From: an uncultured virus (IMG/VR IMGVR_UViG_3300021197_001811)
Lineage: Duplodnaviria; Heunggongvirae; Uroviricota; Caudoviricetes
IMG/VR virus record: IMGVR_UViG_3300021197_001811
Direction: 5' to 3' (one strand)
Length of the DNA stretch: 20,000 bases
The translations under genes and the position numbers were made by a program. A model generated the notes under the pieces. That model saw only the letters and a list, made by a program, of their open reading frames with translations. It ran no database searches and was not told the origin of the DNA. Each line of letters starts with the position of its first letter. The stretch's first letter is position 1. This document shows, piece after piece, positions 2,916 through 14,743 of the stretch.

Positions 2916-5663
2916 TTAAACTCCCACGTTGTAAAAATCGTTATTCACTGTTGAGATCACAGATCTTGCAATCTCTTTCCTGTCTATCTTCAACACAATT
3001 TCCTTACCGTTGCCGCCGGCCATTAGACTTATAAGCTTATCTAGTTTCCTCGCAATGAGACCGCCCTCTTTTATTCCGACTATTTCATCGGACATGTTTG
3101 CGTTGGCGGCGCTCTTAAAGTCACTAACTGTAAAATCATTAACGGTCGGTGTCTTCGCCCTCGGTGAGACTTTGCCCGTTAGGTTTCCTGCTTCTTTGTT
3201 GAACTTATAGTTGACGGCGCCACAGCTGGGACCTCCCTGATTGGGTGGCGCGTTGCCGTTATTGTTTGCGCAGTAGTTGTACCGCTCTTTGGTAGACGCC
3301 TTTGCCCAATCTATACCAGATGACAATCTGGATTCCTCTGCAAACTCGCTTTTACCCTTGCTAAGGTCTATTGCTGTTCCTCCAGTACCGCCAAGGTAAC
3401 CGCCACCCTTCATAAGCGCCTTCGTTTGGTTTCCAGATTCCTGACTTCCAAGAGAGTCATAGAGGAGGTTGCCGAGGGCGAGGCCTCCCGCGAGGGCTAC
3501 GGCACCGCCCAATAGGCCTGCGCCTAGGCCGACGCCTCCTGCTCCAGCAGCTCCAGCAGTTCCAGCAGTTCCAGCAGCTCCAGCAGCTCCAGCAGCGCCA
3601 CCAAGGCCTCCCACTCCACCGACAGGAGGCACGACATCACCGACGCCGCCTCCACCGAATTGATCTCCCATCGCCATCAAAGAGTCGTTGCATATTCTAA
3701 CGCAGTCGCCCAGCAGGCCTCCTCCGCCTCCTCCGCCTTCGCCTCCGCCGCCGCCTCCGCCGCCTCCGGCAACGGCACGAAGAGCTGCAGCTGCTCCTCC
3801 CCCTTTACCACCTTTAAACATTGATACCATTCCTGCGATCTGAACACCTGCCGAAATTGCGGAACCAACTCCAAGAATAGTATTTTGGTTCCTTGCAACA
3901 AAGTCCATTACGCCGGAGGCCTCTTCTTGCATGCCAGTGAGCTTCTCTGATTCTAGTTTTGCTTTCTGATCTGACGTTAGGTTTTTAAATGTTTTCTCTG
4001 CTATATCTTCTTTCTTTTGTTTTCTTGTCTCCATTAAGAGTTCTTTATTAGTGTCGACACCGTTTTTAAGTAACTTATGAAGATCACCTGGATCCATTCC
4101 CAGTTTCTCCGAGACGGCCTTTACTATCTTTCTGTTGTCCATCAGTGCGCCGGAGGGATCCATATCTAGAATTGTTTCTCTAACCATCTTAATCTTGTCT
4201 GGTATGTCCGCATTTGCTAGTGCAATTGCATTAAGACCTTCGCCGATGCCCGCTCCTAAGATCTGGTTTATCGCTCCTGCTGTCTCTGCAGCACCTTCTA
4301 TTGTATCCATCGCGTCAAAGGAACCTATTAGGCCACTAACTTCTATTCCCAACTTGCTAGCAACGCGGATCATCTTCTCTTGAACTTTGACGAAATTGTT
4401 TCCGTATGCTGCAAGGCTCTTACTTCCCTGTTGGAAAGCTGCTGCGATCTCTGAAGGAGGTCGCTTAAGCTCGTCGGCGAGCGCCATCATATTTAGTGTC
4501 AACTGTTCTGCTTCGGCATCTGTCTTGCCCAACGCGTCTCTAAAAAACGCAAAGTTCTCTGCACTTTGTTGTGAAGATATTCCCGCTTGCTCCAGTATCG
4601 CAAAAGTCGTGGCTATACCAGCAACGTCCATCTTTTTAGGATCAGGATCAAACTTTGAATAAGCAGCCTGCAGATTCACAAGCGAGCTTACAAGTTCGTC
4701 ACTTTGAACGCTTAAGGATTCAGAAGCTAGAGCCTGTTCCGTCAGTATGTCTCTGAATCGGCCTCCATCTTCACTAGTAAGTCCTGTGGCTTTGTATACT
4801 TCTAAGCCTTGTTGCTGGATTGTTTTAACTTGTTCGAAAATCTGCTGAACACGAGAGAAGGCGATGTTTAGCGGATCGAACTGCTTTGCAATTCCCTTCC
4901 CGAATTTAGAGTTTACTAGCTTATTAACGCCCAAGAGCAACTTGCCCGTGGACCCTCCCGCTTTATCAGTTTCTTTGGCCAGGCCTGCGTTTGCATCAGC
5001 TAAGGCCTTTGTTGCTGCTTCAGCATCGGATTCAGCTTCAGCGAGGGCGCCGACGCCAGCGACAAGGTCTTTAGTCTTGTCTTGTTTCTCTTGAAGCGCT
5101 TTAAGCCTCTTTTTGGCTTCTTCGTCTTGTGTCTTTGCTTCTTCTGCTGCTTTTTGTGCAGCTGACTTGTATTCGTTCGCCGCTCCTGTGAGCGATTTAA
5201 ACCCATCGTAGAGATCAGTAAGTGTACCTTGTGTTGTTAGTCCAGTGTTGCCCAAGTTCAACATACTCTGGGCTGTATTCTTCATTACGCCAGCGAACAC
5301 CTGGCCTGCTGCGCCTGCCCTCTCTTGTGCTGCTGAAAGAGTGTTGAATCTTTTTTCGGCATCTTGGAGCGCGGTCGTTAGGGGACCTTGGATGGTTTCC
5401 CCCTGATCTATAGCCGCCTTGACATTGAGTTTTGCTATTTCGAACTGTTTCTCAGCTAGCGAAACGTCTAGCTTTCGCATCTCTGCGACACGACCGAGAA
5501 CAGCTGCGAGGTCTCTTTGCTTTTGAATGCTTGCTGTGTCTACTGCGCCTGCGGCGCCTGTGGAACTAACAATGGCTTTTGCCAGGTTGTCAAGCTCTTG
5601 GGCGTTAAGAGCGCCACCGACAGACTTTTGCAGAATAGCCTTAATTTCATTATAATTAGCCAC
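2916..5663 (-). CDS. Tape measure protein (915 aa)
   Basis: GTG start with GGAGG. Long Ala/Leu/Lys helical and coiled-coil sequence, two hydrophobic Gly/Ala segments, C-terminal IVLKIDRKEIA motif. Located downstream of the tube and chaperone genes. Confidence 0.85.
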   Translation of the reverse strand: MANYNEIKAILQKSVGGALNAQELDNLAKAIVSSTGAAGAVDTASIQKQRDLAAVLGRVAEMRKLDVSLAEKQFEIAKLNVKAAIDQGETIQGPLTTALQDAEKRFNTLSAAQERAGAAGQVFAGVMKNTAQSMLNLGNTGLTTQGTLTDLYDGFKSLTGAANEYKSAAQKAAEEAKTQDEEAKKRLKALQEKQDKTKDLVAGVGALAEAESDAEAATKALADANAGLAKETDKAGGSTGKLLLGVNKLVNSKFGKGIAKQFDPLNIAFSRVQQIFEQVKTIQQQGLEVYKATGLTSEDGGRFRDILTEQALASESLSVQSDELVSSLVNLQAAYSKFDPDPKKMDVAGIATTFAILEQAGISSQQSAENFAFFRDALGKTDAEAEQLTLNMMALADELKRPPSEIAAAFQQGSKSLAAYGNNFVKVQEKMIRVASKLGIEVSGLIGSFDAMDTIEGAAETAGAINQILGAGIGEGLNAIALANADIPDKIKMVRETILDMDPSGALMDNRKIVKAVSEKLGMDPGDLHKLLKNGVDTNKELLMETRKQKKEDIAEKTFKNLTSDQKAKLESEKLTGMQEEASGVMDFVARNQNTILGVGSAISAGVQIAGMVSMFKGGKGGGAAAALRAVAGGGGGGGGGEGGGGGGGLLGDCVRICNDSLMAMGDQFGGGGVGDVVPPVGGVGGLGGAAGAAGAAGTAGTAGAAGAGGVGLGAGLLGGAVALAGGLALGNLLYDSLGSQESGNQTKALMKGGGYLGGTGGTAIDLSKGKSEFAEESRLSSGIDWAKASTKERYNYCANNNGNAPPNQGGPSCGAVNYKFNKEAGNLTGKVSPRAKTPTVNDFTVSDFKSAANANMSDEIVGIKEGGLIARKLDKLISLMAGGNGKEIVLKIDRKEIARSVISTVNNDFYNVGV
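3541..3594. repeat. 9-bp tandem repeat (gYtccagca x6) encoding AGA/AGT repeats in the tape measure
   Basis: gctccagca gctccagca gttccagca gttccagca gctccagca gctccagca, read directly. Confidence 0.9.
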
Positions 5664-5684: not shown

Positions 5685-6002
5685 TCACTTGAATGGCCAA
5701 ACCAATCCAGTATCTTTCTGAAATTTGCCTACTGCGCCGTCGAGACGATACTTGGTTTTATATGTAGCTGGATTGTTTAGGCCATATTTGTTGTATGCTA
5801 TGATATAATCTTTCTCTGCAGACAATGCTCGCGTAAAACGGTCGATCTGCATCTCATTACCCTTCACCTTTACAGGATAGTATGTTCCTGTCATGAGGAC
5901 ATTCATCAGGCGCTGAAATTGTGCTCCCAGCTGGTGCATCGACAACGGAACTTCGTTCATTGCCGTGAAGTCAATCACTATTTCTTCGTTTTCTTTTGAC
6001 AA
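5685..6002 (-). CDS. Hypothetical protein (about 105 aa), probable TTG start at 6002
   Basis: GGAGG-ATCTAAAA-TTG TCA AAA GAA. The longer start in the track (6068) lies inside a terminator hairpin. The protein ends in TGLVWPFK. Confidence 0.75.
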   Translation of the reverse strand: MSKENEEIVIDFTAMNEVPLSMHQLGAQFQRLMNVLMTGTYYPVKVKGNEMQIDRFTRALSAEKDYIIAYNKYGLNNPATYKTKYRLDGAVGKFQKDTGLVWPFK

Positions 6003-6033
6003 TTTTAGATCCTCCAAGATATACAAGTAATCA

Positions 6034-6047
6034 AAACTAATTAGTTT
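6034..6047 (-). promoter_or_regulatory. Palindromic AAACTAATTAGTTT containing the recurring ACTAATTA motif (putative late promoter)
   Basis: Lies just after a terminator and about 35 nt before the TTG start. A similar core occurs upstream of other units. Confidence 0.5.
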
Positions 6048-6049
6048 CC

Positions 6050-6080
6050 AAAAAACAAAATGGGGCACGATGGCCCCATT
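6050..6080 (-). terminator. Rho-independent terminator
   Basis: Minus strand AATGGGGC-CATCGT-GCCCCATT followed by TTGTTTTTT, directly at the stop of the gp51-like ORF. Confidence 0.85.
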
Positions 6081-6265
6081 TATTTTTGCATTGCCTTTTC
6101 AGCTTGCTTGTTTTCCTGATCAAACTGCTTACTGAGTCTGTCAAGAAACCATCTTCTAATCTGAATTGGCAAATTATACGCTTCCGTAAAGCTCCAGCCT
6201 CCGTGGTGCTTCAGCAAAAAGAACTCTTCGTAAACGCTTTTTATGTAGTTATTATCCAGGCCAAA
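6080..6265 (-). CDS. gp51-like / tail assembly chaperone C-terminal segment, probably made as a frameshift extension of 6252..7094
   Basis: YEEFFLLKHHGGWSFTEAYNLPIQIRRWFLDRL resembles the gp51 / gpT-type pattern. The track's GTG start at 6310 has no SD. The frame overlaps the upstream ORF in +1. Confidence 0.7.
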   Translation of the reverse strand, partial: FGLDNNYIKSVYEEFFLLKHHGGWSFTEAYNLPIQIRRWFLDRLSKQFDQENKQAEKAMQK

Positions 6266-7094
6266 AGAAATCCCCCGTGATGGGGACCTCACTTTCCATC
6301 GTGTATCCACAATGACTACATTCAGCTTCCTGAATAAACTGCACGTTTGGCATAGACTCTTTATAAGCCTTTCTTATTTTCCTGGCGTCTAAGGCTGGCA
6401 TATTATCCACGAAGCCTGCGATATCATTACCGTCCGTAACACCGTTAACGCTATGAATCATTGCCTTAAGCATATCGGTCAAAGAACTATCTGGAAGGCC
6501 GTGCTTTTCCTTCATCTCTCTTGTCTTTGTTAGCCGTTCATCATCAGAACCTGTAAGGGCTTTGATTTCAACAACGGCTTCCGTCTTTGGAAGCTCAACT
6601 TCTATTGTGCCTCGCGGTGTATACTTAACTTTTTCATTGTTTCTGTTCGTATAACAATCTGTAAAGTTTCCTAAATCAAACGTGTGATCAAATTCCTTAG
6701 TACACGCCTCACAACTCATCTTTACTGGATATTCGTTACCATATCCTGTTATTCTTGCAGCAAACATCAAAGCGTTTCTGTCCCCTATCAAAAGGTCCGC
6801 TACAGAGACATCTTCCATGATGATATTCTGCAGCATTCTATCTATTGCGATTCCTCTTTTTAGGAGAGCCTGACTTGCCAATATATCTTCCTCTTTGGCA
6901 GTCATATGACGTATCTCTATTTCTTCCTTTCCGTGCAAAGCATGTCCAACAGGATATAGCTTCCCTCCCGAAGGGAGTTCCACTATTTCCGTTGGTACTG
7001 AAAAGTTTAATAGAGAGCCACCTTGAGGAGCGGTGGTTTGATGGAGGAGGGCGTCTGCCGATTGGCGCCTCCTCTGTTCATTTCTGTCTGACAA
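6252..7094 (-). CDS. Baseplate hub / tail assembly chaperone, T4 gp26-like, with two CxxC motifs
   Basis: TTG start with GAGAGG. Motifs VELPSGGKLY, IRHMTAKEEDIL, DRNALMFAARITGYG, CEAC and CSHCG, ending in FFWPG. Confidence 0.8.
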   Translation of the reverse strand: MSDRNEQRRRQSADALLHQTTAPQGGSLLNFSVPTEIVELPSGGKLYPVGHALHGKEEIEIRHMTAKEEDILASQALLKRGIAIDRMLQNIIMEDVSVADLLIGDRNALMFAARITGYGNEYPVKMSCEACTKEFDHTFDLGNFTDCYTNRNNEKVKYTPRGTIEVELPKTEAVVEIKALTGSDDERLTKTREMKEKHGLPDSSLTDMLKAMIHSVNGVTDGNDIAGFVDNMPALDARKIRKAYKESMPNVQFIQEAECSHCGYTMESEVPITGDFFWPG

Positions 7095-7155: not shown

Positions 7156-7788
7156 CTAGTTTCTTGTAGCAGTTCCCTGATTGAATCCCTGACGCTTGCC
7201 ACCGATTGGGGTCTGCGCTGCCAGGTGTACACGACTACTGTCTGGTGACTTAATTGATGCCCAGTCGTACCTAATGGTAACCGTGAGATTCAACAGGTCG
7301 TCAGACGTATAATCAAGTTCATCAAAATCAACAGACTTTATCCAAGCGTTATAGAAAGTCCACTCTTCAACTGGTGCGCCTTCGGCGTCCAAGAGCATCA
7401 AGTACATTCCGTTGATAGCTTGGGTTGCTGCTTTTTTGGTTATAACGCCGATGTTGTTCTCAGCGCCTTTACCCAATCCGAGATTATTCTGAGCAAACTT
7501 ATCTGGAGTTCTGTAGCCGGATTTCTCTAAGAGTTTATACATCGTAAGTGATGCATCCGGATTTATAGGATCAGCCATTGTCATAGTTAACTCATCATAG
7601 GAAACTCTTCCTGGATAATAAAACTTGTAATTTAGAAAATCGTGCTCTGCTTCACTTAGACTGATCTTTGGACGTGAAGCTTTCTTCATGATCCAGTGTG
7701 GAACACCATTGAAGCCCATTATCCATCGAAACTTTCTTTTTGGTTCGACGTCTACGCTGCTCCAAAAATTGTTAAATCCGGTACTCAT
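7156..7788 (-). CDS. Tail tube protein (T4 gp19-like)
   Basis: Motifs EPKRKFRW, YYPGRVSYDELTMT..DP, VEEWTFYNAWIKSVDFDELDYTSDDLLNLTVTIRYDWA. SD AGGAGG. Follows the sheath gene. Confidence 0.92.
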   Translation of the reverse strand: MSTGFNNFWSSVDVEPKRKFRWIMGFNGVPHWIMKKASRPKISLSEAEHDFLNYKFYYPGRVSYDELTMTMADPINPDASLTMYKLLEKSGYRTPDKFAQNNLGLGKGAENNIGVITKKAATQAINGMYLMLLDAEGAPVEEWTFYNAWIKSVDFDELDYTSDDLLNLTVTIRYDWASIKSPDSSRVHLAAQTPIGGKRQGFNQGTATRN

Positions 7789-7855: not shown

Positions 7856-10800
7856 TTAATCTTCGAAAGCCGCGCCGCTATTTGTGATAACAAAATCGAT
7901 GGCGATGAACTCTAGAGCCTTTGTCGGCTTTAGGAAGATCTTTGCATACATAATGTTTCTGTCAATAAGGTCAGCAGTCGTAGTAGAAGAATCGAGAACA
8001 ACTTTGAAGTCATCCAGTCCTAATCTAGCCTTGAGCGAAGCCAAGAATGGCTCAACCTGACCCTTAAATCGATTCCAAGTCGACTGTACGTTCTGATCAA
8101 AGAGCAGTACCGAAGCAGTTCTTGAAATTTCCTTCTTGACGTAAATCATCAGTCTTCTTACATTAACCCTGTCAAGAGCAGATGGCGTAGCCATCAGTGT
8201 CTTTTGTCCGAAGATCACGATACCCTCTGCAGGGAACTGTGCGATCGGATTGATACTGTGCTCATAGAGGTCGTCTCTATCCTGAGCTGAAAGTCTCTGT
8301 GAGACTCCCAAGACCGGGATTCCTGCTGCTCCGTTACTGAGGCCACCGCGAGTGAAGCCTGCAGGAGCAAACCAGAGTGAGTGATTACGCTCAGTGTTCG
8401 CAAAAGTTCCGAGTGCCACGACTGAAGGTGGTACCCAAACCTGCTGATCATTAATCTCGTCTTGAATCTTAACCCAAGGGAAGTATGCACAACCGTAGCT
8501 GGTGTTAAGGCTTCTTGTCTTGACTTGGTTCACACAGTCAGTTACGTTGTTGTTTGTTATTCTTGTCTTGAACGTATTGGTTGTCTCCGTCGAAGGTTGG
8601 TAACCGTTATATTCGAGGTCAATGATGGCCAGTGAGTCTCCGCGATCCTCACACACGCTAAGCATGTGATTGGTGATGAGGGGCTCTCTGACGCCCGGAA
8701 CTACCATTGCGTTAATATCTACAACCTCTGGCTCTGCGACAGCGTCTATCGCGAGCTTAAGTGAGTTGGCAGCATAGTTGCCCTTCAAGCTAACTCCAGA
8801 AAGAACGTGATGACCGAAAGGCTCTCTTTCCTTGATATCTAGGCCGTCGAAGCCACCATACATTGGAGAGGTAAACTTAGTAAACCCAGTCTTAACCAGG
8901 TCGGTATAACCACCTCTAAGCGCCGTGTATGATACTCCATCCTTTCTAGATCCGGATACATAGTGTGCCTTTCTAACCGAAGTAGCTGCAGAGTCGGCAG
9001 CAACAAGATCGTCAAGAGTAAATATGAAAGAATACTCTGTGTTAGAGGCTGCGTCCCAAGCGTCTGCAGCGATACCCTTACCGCCAGCGACGACGTCCAA
9101 ATAGGACTCGTCAAATCTGTGACTGGATGGTGATCTCGCAGTCGAGACACCAAAGTGAGCCAACTTATCGAATCGTAGACTGTCGTCAGAACTCGAAACC
9201 CTCAAAGGAAGCGAAGGAAAAATGACCGCCGCTCGTGGGTGTGGAAAAGCCGCGTCTGCTGGGATGCCGGCAATAGTGCTGGCGGATGGGTGCAATCCAC
9301 CAAATATTGCTGTTGTCTTAAATGGTGAAGCACCAACCGCTCCAGAAAGGATGCCGCTCGCACTACCAGATAGGAAAACAGATCCGGTAGCTAAGGTGCC
9401 TTCTGCGGCTCCTAGGCCAACGCCGCCGTCGTCGGTACTAGACGCGTGAACCGTAGATCCAGTCATCTTACCTACGTGAATGCCTGACAGGTCAATCTTC
9501 TTGTATCTTGGAGGTCCGTAAAAACCCCAAGGAAGAAGTGCTGGATCCGTAATACCCTCTTCAACGTCAGAGTTTACTTCAACTCTTATGAATCTTGACT
9601 GATTTGGATGCTGTCCATATACTCTGAATCGTTTCTCGACGTCACTCCATTCCTGATACATATCGCCGATCTTTGATCCGATATAATTTCTAGAATTGGG
9701 ATTAAGACTACAGTTAGAGAACTTCTCCATAACTCTCACTGCACCGTCATGGTCTCGGACGGAACGAAGAGTTACAGTAAACGATCCGTAAGGACTCGCA
9801 TCGCTGCCGGCTCTGAGGTCTGATATCGAGACCTTAATATTCCTGGAGGCCCAGGCGCCGTCGTCCAGTGCAGTTATTCTGAATAGCTTTTGCTGCTTGG
9901 CAGCGTCGAACTTTGTCGTGTTGCTTGAAAGGTCCTGACCAAAGAACCAGCCAGACTTTGCAGGCTGAGTGCTTATCTGGTTTGATCCCCAGTTTGTTGT
10001 ACCCTCTAGGCCAACGATGACGCCGTACAAGGAAGGATCTGCTGCAAGGTTACCCTGGTGCAGGGTTCCGCTACTGTGCAAATCTCTTGCGTGCCTATCG
10101 AAGGTTTCACCGAGCCAGTACCCAGACGTGTTACTAACAGCTGCCGTTCTGCCGCATAGGGTCGGATTCGTATTGAAAACTTTTCTTATGTATTTGTCAG
10201 AATCTCTATCGAAGTTAAAAGTAAGCTTCTTACCAACATCCGAGGCGTCAAAGAGAACTGCTGTGAACTCCATTGTCGCTATTGCGCTCGTCTTAAGAGC
10301 AACGCCGTTTCCGGCTATTGATGTCCGACCTTCGCTTAGGCTGGCGTCGTCCAAATAACCAGCTCGTATTCCGTTGAGCAGCGCTCCTGAAAGCTCTATT
10401 GCGCCCTCATCAAAATACCAAACTGCCGCCAATGAACCAGTTGCTCTAGCTCGGCCTCGTCTGGCCACAGGTGCCGAGTCTCCCAGGAATGCTCCCTGGT
10501 TGTCGATCTGGTGTGAGCCCGAAGTAAACAAGAATAAACCGAAGGCGCCACCGTTTCCAGAAGGAGTTACATCCGTGTTTGCTGCGTGTGAATTATCCAC
10601 CTTCCAGCCAGCTTCACCACCGGTTACTGCGTCAGGGTGCGCTTCACCCAAAACTCTGACTACGGTTATTGGTGCTGAGTTTCTTAGGTAAGCCTGTGCC
10701 GCGTATGCTGCATAAGTAGGGGCAAGATAGTTGCCCTCTCTCCAGACGTCTCCGCCGCGGCCGCCGGGGATGGGGTTACCGAAAATCTCGATAAACTCGC

Positions 10801-10960
10801 TCATACTCTCAACGGTGACTGGTCGGTTTCCTGGGCCTCTTTCTAAGCGGCCTATAATGGCTGGTCCTCTCGCGCCTGCATCTGCGTCAGGTCTTCCTGT
10901 GTTGTCAATCTCGTTAACAAAGACTCCAGGCGAGACGAACTTAAATGAATCAACGGACAT
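7856..10960 (-). CDS. Contractile tail sheath protein (1034 aa)
   Basis: N-terminal FVSPGVFVNEID. C-terminal sheath core WFAPAGFTRG, INPIAQFPAEGIVIFGQKTL, ALDRVNVRRLMIYVKK, IFLKPTKALEFIAIDF. SD AAGGAG. Confidence 0.96.
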   Translation of the reverse strand: MSVDSFKFVSPGVFVNEIDNTGRPDADAGARGPAIIGRLERGPGNRPVTVESMSEFIEIFGNPIPGGRGGDVWREGNYLAPTYAAYAAQAYLRNSAPITVVRVLGEAHPDAVTGGEAGWKVDNSHAANTDVTPSGNGGAFGLFLFTSGSHQIDNQGAFLGDSAPVARRGRARATGSLAAVWYFDEGAIELSGALLNGIRAGYLDDASLSEGRTSIAGNGVALKTSAIATMEFTAVLFDASDVGKKLTFNFDRDSDKYIRKVFNTNPTLCGRTAAVSNTSGYWLGETFDRHARDLHSSGTLHQGNLAADPSLYGVIVGLEGTTNWGSNQISTQPAKSGWFFGQDLSSNTTKFDAAKQQKLFRITALDDGAWASRNIKVSISDLRAGSDASPYGSFTVTLRSVRDHDGAVRVMEKFSNCSLNPNSRNYIGSKIGDMYQEWSDVEKRFRVYGQHPNQSRFIRVEVNSDVEEGITDPALLPWGFYGPPRYKKIDLSGIHVGKMTGSTVHASSTDDGGVGLGAAEGTLATGSVFLSGSASGILSGAVGASPFKTTAIFGGLHPSASTIAGIPADAAFPHPRAAVIFPSLPLRVSSSDDSLRFDKLAHFGVSTARSPSSHRFDESYLDVVAGGKGIAADAWDAASNTEYSFIFTLDDLVAADSAATSVRKAHYVSGSRKDGVSYTALRGGYTDLVKTGFTKFTSPMYGGFDGLDIKEREPFGHHVLSGVSLKGNYAANSLKLAIDAVAEPEVVDINAMVVPGVREPLITNHMLSVCEDRGDSLAIIDLEYNGYQPSTETTNTFKTRITNNNVTDCVNQVKTRSLNTSYGCAYFPWVKIQDEINDQQVWVPPSVVALGTFANTERNHSLWFAPAGFTRGGLSNGAAGIPVLGVSQRLSAQDRDDLYEHSINPIAQFPAEGIVIFGQKTLMATPSALDRVNVRRLMIYVKKEISRTASVLLFDQNVQSTWNRFKGQVEPFLASLKARLGLDDFKVVLDSSTTTADLIDRNIMYAKIFLKPTKALEFIAIDFVITNSGAAFED

Positions 10961-11148: not shown

Positions 11149-14100
11149 TTAGGAAACTACGCCCGAACCGGAGAGATAAGTGATTGTCAGGATATCGTCA
11201 CTGTCCAACGCGAGGTCTTCATTGAGAAGAACCTTATAAGCATTAGCAGAACCTGTCGCCAAGTGATAATCTGCGCTGCCAATATTACGTCCAGCGTCAG
11301 AGATCTGATGGTGATCACCGTGGAGCAGGATACCGTTCAAGTAAACCATAATGGTACCCGAAACTGGCTGTGCGCCAAGTGATGCAGTTGTGTATGGTGT
11401 CGCGACCGCATTGGTAGCGAACATACCATGCGTAGGCACGGTACCACTGATGTTAGAGCCATCTGCGCGAACGAAGATGCCCTTTCTCCAGCCAACACTC
11501 AAACGACCAGAAGTAAATACGAGACCACCGTGGGCATCGTTGTTGTTCTGGATGACGTCGTTAGCTAGCTTTGCCTTAGTGACCGATGCGTTATTGATCT
11601 TCGCAGTCGTAACAGCGGAATCAAGAATCGCAGCAGACAAGACAGAACCAGTCTGTAGGTTGTCCTGTGTGACAACTCCCTTACCAATCAAGCGGTTGAT
11701 GTCAATTCGGTTGAACTGACCCATCGCGCCGGAGATAGCAGAACTGGCTCCAGTACAAGTGATACCACCTGCAGAAGACAAAGCTCCGACAGTAGCAGTT
11801 CCGGCGATGCCGACAGCACCTGCAATAGATGCAGACATTGCACTCACGAGGCTATATCTCTTTGTTGCCGAACCAAGGGCAACCTTGTTATCATTCTGTG
11901 GGATAAGATCAGTGATCTGACCACCCAAGAACGAAAGATCATCAGTGTTCGCTGAACCTAGGATAACGCCATTTGAAGCAGTTATACTGCCCGCCTGGAG
12001 TCCACCGAGGACTGCATCGTCACCAGTAAGATCGTGGAAGTTACCAGTTGCACCGGAAACCGATGTTGAACCAACTAGAGCAACACCGCTGACCTTGCCG
12101 ACAGAAACGTGGCCAATTTCAGCTCTCTTACCCTGTAGGAGAGAACCAGAAACAGAACCAGTAACGCCAAAGCGCATACCTGGAGTGCCCAACATAGCCT
12201 GAGTAACGCCACCAGACATGAAGCTTGCGCCCGACTGTCCGTCAACATTAATGACCATAGAGTCACCAGTCACCTTTCTATTTCCTAGTGTCATCGACAT
12301 AAGCGGGAGAGAACCAGTGCCAGAGACACCGACCTTACCACCGAGCTGGAAACCAGCACCGACGAAGTCACCAGCAACCGAACCAGAAACACCTGCGATA
12401 ATCAGGTTATCCTGAATCTCTAGTGAATCCTTTGTAACTGTTCTAGAAACGATAGTATCAACATCCAACTGTGTGATCTTCGCGTAAGAAGCAGTAATTG
12501 CTGTTGCAACAACTGTATCAATGTTACCTGTGTCGATGTGAGCTTCAGCGAACTGCTTCGAAGAAGTACCCAAGTCAACCTTGCTGTCATTCTGTGGTAC
12601 AAGGTCTGTAATGAGACCACCCAAGATTGACAAGTCATCTGTGTTCGCTGAACCTAGGATAACGCCATTTGAGGCAGTCAGGCTACCTGCTGTCATCACA
12701 GATGCAGTCAACTGACCCGTGGTGCCATAAATTGCTGCAACACTGCCAACGACAGTATTTGCGGCGGAACCGTCAAGTAAGTTAATTTCTGCAGCAGTTG
12801 AAGTAACAGCCGTACCTNNNNNNNNNNNNNNNNNNNNNNNNNNNNNNNNNNNNNNNNNNNNNNNNNNNNNNNNNNNNNNNNNNNNNNNNNNNNNNNNNNN
12901 NNNNNNNNNNNNNNNNNGTGACCTGACCACCCAAGAATCCCAAGTCGTCAGCATTTGAACTACCGAGTAGGACGCCGTTTGAAGCCGTAATGCTGGAAGC
13001 AACAATGCCACCAACAGTAAGATCATCAGCAGCGAGATCGTGGAAAGTAGATGCAGAACCAGAAACAGTAGCAGCCGAGACTGTATCAGTAACTGTTAGA
13101 CTGTTTCCAATACCAACATTGTCACTAAAAGAACCGGATTCTGCGAAAACGGTGTTCCAAGCTAGTGCGTTTGTACCCAAGTCGTTCAAGCCGTCCGTCT
13201 TTGGAATAAGGCCTGAAATAATTCTAGCAGTGATATTAAGAGTATCACCTGTTGCGTCACCTATGAGAACGTCGCCAGATGCGGTGATGTTCGTGAGAAC
13301 TGAAGAAGAAATATAACTCTTTAGTGCTCCTAGTGTAAGACCCTTCATCCCGGCTGACGCGCCGCGAGATGAGGAGAGTGCCAAGGTATCTGCATCTTGC
13401 AAATCCGTGACAAAATCTGCTGCAGCTAAGTCGCTAAAACTTAGGTGCTTAACTTCTATTGAACCTGAACTGATGTTGTCTTTGGTCAACCCACCGACTG
13501 CGATGAGTTTTGCCCCTATTCTTGTTCTTGCCATGATTGATGTTACTCCTGAGGATTCTCCTCCTCCGCTCATTCCAGATACGGAAAAAAGGGATCCCTT
13601 GTTCGTTGTTGTGATTGTTACGTTTCCGACGTCACTATCATTGTCGTTAGTTAAATTAACTGTGGCGTCCGAGCGAGTCGCAGTGATTTCCAGCTTTGAA
13701 CCATTAATTATGTCTTTAATGGACTCCGCGATGTCTGCTGCACTCAGCGAAGCATCTGAACCAGATCCCGCCTTCGTACCACCTCTGAAATATATCTCAG
13801 TGTTGACGTTATTGTAAAGAAACTGGTCATTGTCTGCGGACGCATTCAAAGTATGTCTTGCGATAGCAGGGGCCTGAGCATATTCGTTATAACCATAAGA
13901 CGCTGCAATCTTTTCAGCTGCCGAAGAAGCTGTCAAGTGAGCCTGTGCGTCCACCAAGTTAAAAGAACAAGCATTTCCCTTTGCTCCTGCTGTCTCATAC
14001 TCCAAGCGTATACCAACAGACTCAGCCGATGTGTAAGAGCCTGCGCCGCCAAGAGTACCAAGAGATGCAGACATCAAAGATCCGTCTGACTTAATACCCT

Positions 14101-14743
14101 GAACGTCGATGTTGATCAGACCGGACGTGTACGCATGTTTAATCGCACCAAAGAATACCTGGTGCGCTTTCCACGCATTAGTGCCCTCGTTAACAACTCT
14201 TATAAAATAGTTCCTGCTTGAAGCAGTCTCTCTATAGAGCCAATACCTAGGAGAACCTGTAGCTGAATACTTATAAAGCAATACAGCGCTCTGGTTTGTT
14301 ATCGCGGTGGCATTGGTTGAACCAAAGCCAATCTTGATTGAATCTCCGTCAGCGTCTCTTATAACCCAGTGAGGTCTAACTGCAATGTCCTTAAACCCGG
14401 CATTACCTGCCGTTGCAATTTCACCATACTGGTTAAGCGCGTTGTCTATGTTCGCTGAGTCCGTAAAATAAAACGATATGCCTGCCTTTGTCGCGCCATC
14501 TGACTCGTCAAAGGTTGGGATAACTACTCTGCCTCTTTGAGAATCCTCAAAAGGTGTCTGAGTAGAAGCCGTGTATGCCGTTGCAAGTTCTCCGACGTAT
14601 CGGGTCTGCAATTGGCTTGCATGATTATCTATAACAAAAGTTAAACTATTAGTACCATCTCCTAAAACAAAACGTGGGTAATCAGCTGAGTCGAATTCGC
14701 CCCCAGCTTCAGCGATTACCACTGTTCCTGTTGATGCTGCCAT
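11149..14743 (-). CDS. Large Gly/Ser/Thr/Ala-rich virion fibre or appendage protein, probably a single gene spanning the N gap
   Basis: The open frame from ATG 14743 (SD GGGAG) reaches the gap, and a second open frame runs from the gap to TAA 11149. The same repeat module (SITASNGV.LGS.N.DDL..LGG) occurs on both sides. Fibre-type motifs VTSTAAEINLLDG and AVTTAKI/SVTKAKL are present. Confidence 0.7.
11945..12672. repeat. Intragenic direct repeat, 32-bp identical core at 11945-11976 and 12641-12672
   Basis: gtgttcgctgaacctaggataacgccatttga occurs twice. A more diverged copy lies at about 12920-13000. Confidence 0.85.
12818..12917. other. Scaffold gap (exactly 100 N, placeholder length)
   Basis: Run of N, counted directly. 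Confidence 0.98.

Follow-up and report, generated by a model that had tools for sequence, protein, structure and literature searches.

A putative forward ribosomal frameshift in a T4 gp26-family tail assembly chaperone gene of an uncultured tailed phage

Two overlapping open reading frames (ORFs) on the minus strand of a 20,000-nucleotide (nt) stretch of DNA from an uncultured virus of the Caudoviricetes (IMG/VR record IMGVR_UViG_3300021197_001811), the whole of which is called the window in the following, are the subject of this analysis. As judged from the comparison of related loci, ORF1 and the +1-shifted ORF2 that follows it probably constitute one recoded tail assembly chaperone gene of the T4 gp26 family, in which a +1 ribosomal frameshift would produce a C-terminally extended protein besides a short one. 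The elements of this gene are the following.

7094..6252, minus strand: ORF1, TTG start, 280 amino acids, the short product; putative tail/hub assembly chaperone of the T4 gp26 family
6263..6269, minus strand: candidate slip site TTC TTT T, with UUC in the E site, UUU (6266..6264) in the P site and U 6263 skipped
6083..6262, minus strand: trans-frame (+1) continuation of the coding sequence, GGC being the first of its 60 sense codons; predicted C-terminal extension

ORF1 ends in ACG GGG GAT TTC TTT TGG CCT GGA TAA, with TTC at 6269..6267, TTT at 6266..6264, TGG at 6263..6261 and the stop codon at 6254..6252; the tetranucleotide UUU_U is located at 6266..6263. The +1 frame is uninterrupted from 6373 to its stop codon at 6082..6080, reading ...RGISFGLDNNYIK..., and one +1 step after TTT 6266..6264 leads to a product of 337 amino acids, 57 more than in the short form, with the junction ITGDFFGLDNNYIK, ...ITGDFF-GLDNNYIK.... 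An earlier sequence-only reading of this DNA had given the coordinates and letters of the ORF1 end, of UUU_U and of the +1 frame correctly, and its proposal that tRNA-Phe shifts by +1 on UUU_U to yield products of 280 and 337 amino acids, a forward analogue of the lambda G/GT pair, finds support in the comparison of loci.

In the proposed mechanism, most ribosomes would read GAU UUC UUU UGG CCU GGA UAA and release the short form, while a minority would slip with peptidyl-tRNA-Phe on UUU 6266..6264 as the A site awaits UGG; the tRNA would re-pair one base forward on UUU 6265..6263, GGC would be decoded next and the 337-residue long form would result. Both the ribosomal nature of the shift and this codon as its place are what we infer. 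A conserved hairpin 5' of the site and a GGAGGU resembling a Shine-Dalgarno (SD) sequence may promote the shift and, as a guess, re-forming of the hairpin at the exit side might pull the mRNA out and favour forward movement. By analogy with lambda G/GT, the part shared by both products might bind the tape measure protein and the extension might recruit another tail part, an end that T4 would reach by means of two paralogous genes, 26 and 51.

Conservation of the overlapping frame

Three collections of loci were compared. Set A comprises 80 viral contigs together with phage Mel-JY01 and the window (82 loci) and is biased towards the motif, because one of its two search patterns contained FFW; set B comprises 17 genome-bin loci retrieved by patterns lying away from the slip site, and set C 80 viral loci, 79 of them evaluable, found with patterns from elsewhere in ORF1. 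Sets A and C share some contigs, and the relatedness of the sequences inflates all counts on conserved signals given below. Across these scans, two of them blind to the motif, 178 related loci were covered, and the layout is shared by all those that could be evaluated: ORF2 stands in the +1 frame relative to ORF1 in 82/82 loci of set A, 17/17 of set B and 79/79 of set C, and a second ORF in frame 0 or -1, or an absent one, was not seen in any of the three sets. The +1 overlap read from the window is conserved in its homologues and the frame relation does not vary. A complete +1 ORF of 53-86 codons is present in all 81 loci of set A with enough DNA, the remaining one (L055) leaving its contig, and the ORF1 stop codon is found 2-6 codons past TGG; in set B the T-run is accompanied by a +1 ORF of 57-96 codons in 17/17 loci. 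Equally, the relation is always +1 in the distant cultured phages, with TTT TTT TGG in Mel-JY01 (Microcystis), TTT CTT TGG in Flavobacterium phage immuto, TTC TTT CGT in Bacillus phage HSE3, TTT TTT AGT in Listeria phage LIS04 and TTT TTT CAC in Bacillus phage SP-15, which retain TTT followed by T or C; an uncultured 484-kb phage reads TTT CTA at the corresponding place.

An overlap that arose by accident, by an assembly error or in a decaying gene with a functionless +1 frame has next to no probability on this evidence. One window taken by itself leaves room for an insertion or deletion, but nothing specific speaks for such an origin; the same frames recur in the 178 other loci, DNA contigs from two other studies differ from the window by three substitutions away from the slip site and by no insertion or deletion, and the extension is under strong amino-acid conservation. 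In our view, the comparison of sequences has already refuted this explanation.

The slip site takes the forms TTT TTT T, TTC TTT T or TTT CTT T in the relatives. YTT-T-GG occurs in 82/82 loci of set A (TTTTTTTGG in 72, TTTCTTTGG in 5, TTCTTTTGG in 5); set B has TTTTTTTGG in 14 loci and TTT CTC TGG, TTT TTT TTC and TTT TTT TAC in one each, and the 56 distinct TGG contexts of set C divide into TTTTTTTGGCCT (42), TTCTTTTGGCCT (10), TTTTTTTGGCCA (2) and TTTTTTTGGTCT (2), with TAC in four further loci. Of the motif TTY TTT TGG CC proposed from the window, YTT-T is kept in 82/82 loci of set A, in 17/17 of set B as a T-run and in 79/79 of set C. The last codon before the shift, over 79 distinct contexts, is TTT in 74 and CTT in 5; a synonymous loss of UUU_U by TTC in this place, which the sequence-only reading had named as a sign against a shift, was looked for and found in 0/79. 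Elsewhere in the genes of the relatives phenylalanine is encoded by TTT 552 times and by TTC 178 times (TTC 24%), and the window phage itself uses TTC 152 times versus TTT 136 times; TTC is tolerated only one codon before the last, as in the window. YTT with T next and never TTC is what P-site re-pairing from YUU to UUU needs, but codon choice alone is not proof, because the overlapping frame also constrains the same bases.

In one genome-bin contig (L091, about 3800-4100) ORF1 ends GGG TTT CTC TGG CCA ACG TTC GAT AAG TGA; the FFG motif of the extension stands about 10 codons further in the +1 frame, past the ORF1 stop codon, and a shift would need TTT_C.

The peptide encoded in the +1 frame is conserved across relatives from the junction itself (FFGLxxxYxxxVYE...WSFxEAYNLP...), in agreement with the earlier observation that the protein-like part begins at the overlap. 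Its consensus in 76 distinct relatives is GLxxxYxxxVYExFFxLKYHGGWSFxEAYNLPxxxRxWF, with G1, L2, Y11, F15, W23, E27, L31, P32, R36 and W38 invariant, a pattern by which the extension is judged to be coding and under strong amino-acid conservation. A profile of the extension finds 758 matches at E<=0.001 among 1.84 billion representatives and recognises the +1 ORFs of the distant phages with E 2e-26 to 3e-4 (19-sequence set).

ORF2 might alternatively be a separate small gene, translated from its own start codon or by re-initiation after ORF1, with no fused protein made. Two GTG codons at 6310 and 6292, upstream of the junction in the +1 frame of the window, agree with such a gene and count against recoding, as do the small coding sequences (CDSs) annotated separately in GenBank (from TTG in Mel-JY01, from ATG in HSE3, from an internal ATG in SP-15) and the hundreds of free-standing small proteins listed by gene callers. 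Neither GTG has a good SD sequence, however, and neither can be a conserved start, because in the closest relatives of the window, two loci 89% identical to it (L105 and L106), a TAA in the +1 frame stands five codons before the junction and no start codon is present. Between the upstream +1 stop codon and the junction ATG, GTG and TTG are all missing in 17/82 loci of set A and 22/56 distinct contexts of set C, some start-less loci having only 3-5 codons in this interval, and 10/82 loci of set A are additionally without CTG, ATT, ATC and ATA. Start positions, where present, are not conserved, the called N-termini of the 758 relatives falling at many different profile positions, and leucine at the junction is encoded by CTA, CTG or CTC, so that no near-cognate start is kept there. 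The peptide is conserved from the junction onwards, LIS04 has no CDS annotated over the extension and one protein, P0277, is a one-frame fusion. A separate gene is very improbable in view of these points. The earlier statement that the second ORF has no start stands for the start-less loci and contexts, while the window's own frame does contain the two GTG codons.

P0277, the naturally fused homologue whose existence bears out a further expectation of the sequence-only reading, has 313 amino acids and unites PF12322 (31-226) with the extension (235-296) in a single frame without a T-run at the junction; its alignment to the predicted trans-frame product spans 284 residues (29% identity, E 1e-35) and crosses the junction without interruption. 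When the fused sequence served as query, its 120 best homologues were without exception 277-301 amino acids long and covered the ORF1 part only, 115 of them terminating in FFWP plus 0-2 residues, and among the 150 best representatives from the extension profile 149 have 39-165 amino acids, P0277 being the one of 313. That fusions are rare is consistent with selection for the production of both forms. Longer proteins holding ORF2 gave seven matches and no clean fusion among them: P0127 carries an ORF1 tail read in the +1 frame from further upstream and looks like an indel or a miscall, and the flanks of P0132 and P0133 are unrelated.

Signals around the slip site and slippage of RNA polymerase

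Directly upstream of the P-site codon a further element is found.

6267..6290, minus strand: 5' hairpin GAGGUCCCC / AUCACG / GGGGAUUUC, ending at the base before the P-site codon

The arms GAGGUCCCC (6290..6282) and GGGGAUUUC (6275..6267) pair with a minimum free energy (MFE) of -16.4 kcal/mol for 42 nt, and an SD-like GAGGU (6290..6286) sits in the 5' arm. In comparison with synonymous resamplings, the hairpin region of the window folds at -14.4 versus -6.9 +/- 2.2, with 0/100 as low, and over 118 contexts the 30-nt segment that ends with the slip codons has a mean of -7.33 versus -2.97 kcal/mol in synonymous controls. GGAGGT is present in 75/90 distinct contexts versus a mean of 17.9 and a maximum of 30 in 1,000 synonymous-codon resamplings; it ends 19 nt (25 nt in part of the loci) ahead of the P-site codon, and strong synonymous preferences (GAG, CCG, GAC) surround the site. 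Of the two stimulators to which the sequence-only reading had pointed, the TCCCC/GGGGA hairpin is real by its MFE, with the qualification from shuffled sequences given below, whereas the SD-like GGGGG 5 nt upstream of the site is not kept, the relatives reading GGC GAG, GGT GAC or GCG GAC. A 'nudge' by an upstream hairpin is discussed as a frameshift model in a passage of PMC10885494.

A hairpin 5' of a T-run could also cause RNA polymerase to slip, whereupon a fraction of the transcripts would be one U shorter and carry the fused protein as a single ORF. Such transcriptional slippage could yield the same product, because a hairpin followed by seven T resembles a terminator, and a consensus scan indeed flagged TCCCCATCACGGGGG + ATTTCTTTTG (6286..6272) as terminator-like. 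Seven T in a row are present in 72/82 loci of set A and 46/56 distinct contexts of set C. The better folding of the 30 upstream nt than in synonymous controls, which amounts to a stable hairpin directly 5' of the slippery run, suits this explanation as well, and T-to-C variants sit where C converts G-U into G-C in the hairpin (pairs 9-34 and 10-33). Penno and colleagues reportedly described in 2015 a hairpin-dependent transcriptional slippage deleting one base in an insertion sequence element. On the other hand, only four T in a row are found in the window and in at least 14 further loci (TTC TTT T in 5/82 including the window and in 10/56), the TTT CTT T loci have just three T in a row, and the distant phages retain only TTT followed by T or C, while all variants retain YUU then U, as the P-site tRNA needs, and TTC is never the last codon. 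Slippage of the polymerase is ranked below the ribosomal shift because the four- and three-T loci all keep YUU_U, and we consider it unlikely, with the proviso that the protein product would be identical under both readings, so that sequence comparison cannot settle between them.

Several observations weigh against a ribosomal frameshift at this place, in addition to the GTG codons, the terminator-like flag and the seven T described above. The hairpin of the window attains only z = -1.7 in comparison with dinucleotide shuffles, 12/200 of which fold as well, covariation is weak with 1/10 hairpin pairs changed on both sides, and RNAalifold applied to positions -36..+45 returned an empty consensus structure. 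SD-like sequences are known to be effective 3 nt from a +1 site and about 10 nt from a -1 site, and GGAGGT, at 19 or 25 nt, falls outside this range. The pause of known +1 sites is not evident, because UGG is not rare in this phage (14.6 per 1000 versus 27.5 for GGC) and no stop codon occupies the A site. In-frame YTT TGG occurs once each in the minus-strand ORFs 1-1725, 7156-7788 and 11149-12781, so the slip tetranucleotide alone cannot be the signal; in the tube gene (7156..7788) it is located at codon 7. The natural fusion P0277 is the single one found, a singleton on a 2,192-base contig, and in the four sequencing runs compared with the window, out of 24 listed, the two RNA-library contigs span 5700..6035 and stop short of the slip site, assembled RNA contigs being of a kind that cannot reveal rare transcript variants. 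With these points included, a ribosomal shift still appears to be the probable explanation.

Protein products, gene neighbourhood and annotation

That ORF1 is gp26-like, as proposed earlier, is confirmed by its match to PF12322 (E 1.1e-18, 68.2 bits versus a curated cut-off of 24.5), which covers residues 38-278 on profile positions 6-219 of 219. ORF1 equally matches phrog_150 'baseplate hub' (E 6e-21), a family of which the unmatched C-terminal 50 positions do not fit the extension. An AlphaFold model of ORF1 (predicted local distance difference test, pLDDT, 86.6; predicted template modelling score, pTM, 0.79) was compared with 48,161 solved chains, and the top three matches, with alignment length in residues and root-mean-square deviation (rmsd), all fall on residues 24-127.

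3klu (YqbN): Z 6.2, rmsd 4.6, 87 aligned; Z under the tool's safe level
3fgx: Z 6.2, rmsd 4.4, 84 aligned; Z under the tool's safe level
2ob9 (HK97 tail assembly chaperone): Z 6.0, rmsd 5.1, 85 aligned; Z under the tool's safe level

The next unrelated chains have Z of 3.4 or less, and a model of the natural fusion P0277 returns the same chaperone structures; 3klu and 3fgx, too, we take to be tail assembly chaperones. At these modest Z values the predicted chaperone-like fold of ORF1 is suggestive, and modelled fold and gene position jointly point to a tail assembly chaperone. Searches of solved structures by sequence gave no match for ORF1 or ORF2, and Foldseek found none in the PDB at E<=0.001.

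The extension of 60 residues is predicted to be helical, and its model has unspecific matches only among the solved chains. PF20546 (DUF6760) scores 18.4 bits on the window extension, under its cut-off of 27, and matches 64/76 extension relatives at E<=1 (lowest E 1.7e-5); matches to DUF6760 in three metagenome-assembled genomes are all under the cut-off. By these profile scores the extension may at most be a distant relative of DUF6760. A complex prediction of the tail tube protein with the extension scored 0.00, which has no bearing either way.

The recoded gene has the following surroundings.

7156..7788, minus strand: tail tube gene, directly upstream of ORF1; PF06841, phrog_4542
10960..7856, minus strand: sheath gene, preceding the tube gene
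6002 or 6068..5685, minus strand: small ORF between ORF2 and the tape-measure-like gene
2916..5663, minus strand: tape-measure-like gene, 915 amino acids with a glycine-rich tract; assigned by position and size
6048..6081, minus strand: intrinsic-terminator-like hairpin and T-run, a 9-pair stem AAATGGGGC...GCCCCATTT followed by TGTTTTTTGG; begins inside the ORF2 stop codon

ORF1 and ORF2 are located between tube and tape measure genes, as is typical of G/GT-type pairs. A tube gene is found upstream of ORF1 in 131 distinct related loci, and the order of tube gene, PF12322 gene, small ORF and tape measure gene is shared by Flavobacterium phage immuto, Bacillus phages HSE3 and SP-15 and Listeria phage LIS04. 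The tape-measure-like protein has no Pfam or PHROG family match; the equivalent gene is labelled tape measure in the records of the Flavobacterium, Bacillus and Listeria phages. Long glycine runs (GGGGGGGGGEGGGGGGG) and Gly/Ala-rich stretches occupy the last third of this protein.

The hairpin at 6048..6081 is symmetrical, hence it scores on the plus strand too, and it stands between the sheath, tube and chaperone genes on one side and the small ORF and tape measure gene on the other. Contigs from two RNA-type seawater libraries cover the small ORF only (5700..6035), and one of them ends at 5999, near the likely TTG start of the small ORF at 6002. Further upstream, two minus-strand ORFs at 11149-13026 (625 amino acids) and 12782-14743 (653 amino acids) overlap by 245 bases in different frames, and PHROG gave no match for either at E<=1e-5. 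A later start of the downstream gene may account for the overlap, or another recoding site may be present.

Slippage is annotated in none of the six named phage records, and all six either omit the extension or give it a wrong start, as do hundreds of metagenomic gene calls, with the gene labelled 'baseplate hub' and not chaperone. In Listeria phage LIS04 (L086) a stretch of about 230 bases (3208-3439) that separates the 'baseplate hub' gene from the tape measure gene has no annotated CDS; it contains the conserved +1 extension without a start codon. Literature searches, with supplements outside their scope, returned no report of this frameshift in the gp26 family, and the words frameshift, chaperone and tape measure are absent from the SP-15 genome paper. 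New here would be the forward shift in the gp26 family; frameshifted tail chaperones as such are already known, and forward shifts in other families have been proposed or annotated. Bacterial +1 signals of the sense-codon kind are few, and the loci described here, an estimated ~4,500 viral stretches, might offer a natural series of such sites with a conserved 5' element that can be dissected.

Comparison with known recoding systems

In pairs of the G/GT type the short form binds the tape measure and the extension binds the tube; both forms are needed and both are absent from virions. Lambda gpG/gpGT represents the conserved tail-chaperone frameshift of long-tailed phages (Levin 1993 and Xu 2004, via Atkins et al. 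2016, PMC5009743). As far as the account in that review goes, the window locus resembles lambda in having an overlapping pair of ORFs flanked by tube and tape measure genes, one start from which a short product and one with a C-terminal extension are predicted, a slip site few codons before the stop codon and a second ORF that has no start codon in the start-less loci and contexts and is conserved as coding. It differs in that the shift would be +1 on YUU_U, as in all loci of the clade, whereas lambda shifts by -1 on a heptamer X XXY YYZ; in that a two-domain, zinc-ribbon-bearing PF12322 protein of 280 amino acids takes the place of the G-type chaperone of about 130; and in that the conserved RNA element of the family lies 5' of the site.

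The release factor 2 gene prfB shifts by +1 at CUU UGA C with an upstream SD sequence. There as here, a P-site YUU can re-pair on UUU (UUU_U or CUU_U in 82/82 loci of set A), five to six relatives even having CUU_U followed by GG C, and a G-rich SD-like element is present upstream of the window site. In contrast to prfB, the A-site codon is the sense codon UGG with a stop codon 2-6 codons later, the conserved SD-like GGAGGU is located 19-25 nt and not 3 nt upstream, and the autoregulatory logic has no counterpart. In the PA-X site of influenza A, UCC UUU CGU C, tRNA-Phe slips forward from UUU to UUY and the rare CGU codon acts as pause. A forward slip of tRNA-Phe would be common to both, and Bacillus phage HSE3 has the same TTC TTT CGT; PA-X is, however, eukaryotic with its rare-CGU pause, while the A-site codon of the window family is mostly UGG. 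Among phages, a +1 frameshift has been proposed in the tail chaperone gene of the haloarchaeal myovirus HSTV-2 (Atkins 2016, PMC5009743), and 350 forward cases have been annotated in actinobacteriophage tail chaperone genes (PRFect paper, PMC10885494). There, too, a forward shift would make the long chaperone form, but in other protein families and hosts, and the relevant passages of the two papers mention no link to the T4 gp26 family.

Rhizobium phage LG08 (L189, 3130-3400) has a tube-adjacent PF12322 gene ending in GAT TTT TTC TCC TCC TGA, with a -1 frame open for about 70 codons on T TTT TTC; the arrangement is annotated as separate small genes. The ORF2 profile matches this -1 frame weakly (E 0.008, 19-sequence set). 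With -1 in LG08 and +1 in the present clade, the direction of the shift would vary between clades of the gp26 family and be constant within this one.

G-T frameshifting is conserved 'except T4' in the wording of a recoding review (PMC5009743). T4 gp26 (208 amino acids) and gp51 (249 amino acids) are listed as hub assembly chaperones in Table 2 of Leiman et al. (2010, PMC3004832). Both score on PF12322, gp26 with 215.6 and gp51 with 177.5 bits; gp26 is the bare domain, whereas gp51 consists of the domain (residues 1-201, E 3.9e-52) and a C-terminal extension of 48 amino acids. Since gp51 is a gp26-type domain with an extension, the T4 pair corresponds to the short and long forms predicted here, and gp26 ends ...KEFFELL, with the same ...EFF motif as ORF1. 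The gp51 homologues (T4 = L083; proteins P0284-P0375) carry a second Pfam family, PF28602, which probably models their C-terminal extension. In T4, on the other hand, genes 26 and 51 are divergently transcribed without an overlapping frame, gene 25 follows gene 26 and neither is located beside the tube gene. The sequence-only reading had called ORF2 itself gp51-like; BLASTP between the two found no similarity, a hidden Markov model (HMM) of ORF2 did not match gp51 and hhalign against 41 gp51 homologues gave a probability of 0.6%, so that a likeness of the two C-terminal tails noted by eye was dropped. It is the long product as a whole that resembles gp51 in architecture.

We tentatively propose, with slightly less than even confidence, that in a very large group of contractile-tailed phages the gp26 family serves as the tail-assembly-chaperone system, that its pair of products is made in three interchangeable ways, by +1 shift, by -1 shift or from two paralogues, and that the +1 form has a stimulator that has not been described before. 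If true, the three ways would be represented by the +1 shift of the marine clade and the Flavobacterium, Microcystis, Bacillus and Listeria phages, by the -1 shift on T TTT TTC of LG08 and by genes 26 and 51 of T4. The stimulator of the +1 form would then be a 5' hairpin that extends as far as the E-site codon, carries the SD-like GGAGGU in the 5' arm and operates while a sense codon occupies the A site. The roles of T4 gp26 and gp51, still vague in the pertinent part of PMC3004832, would be tied to the best-understood logic of tail chaperones, and an explanation would be offered for T4 as the exception named in the corresponding passage on tail-chaperone frameshifting (PMC5009743), upon which the 'except T4' gap in the G/GT rule would dissolve.

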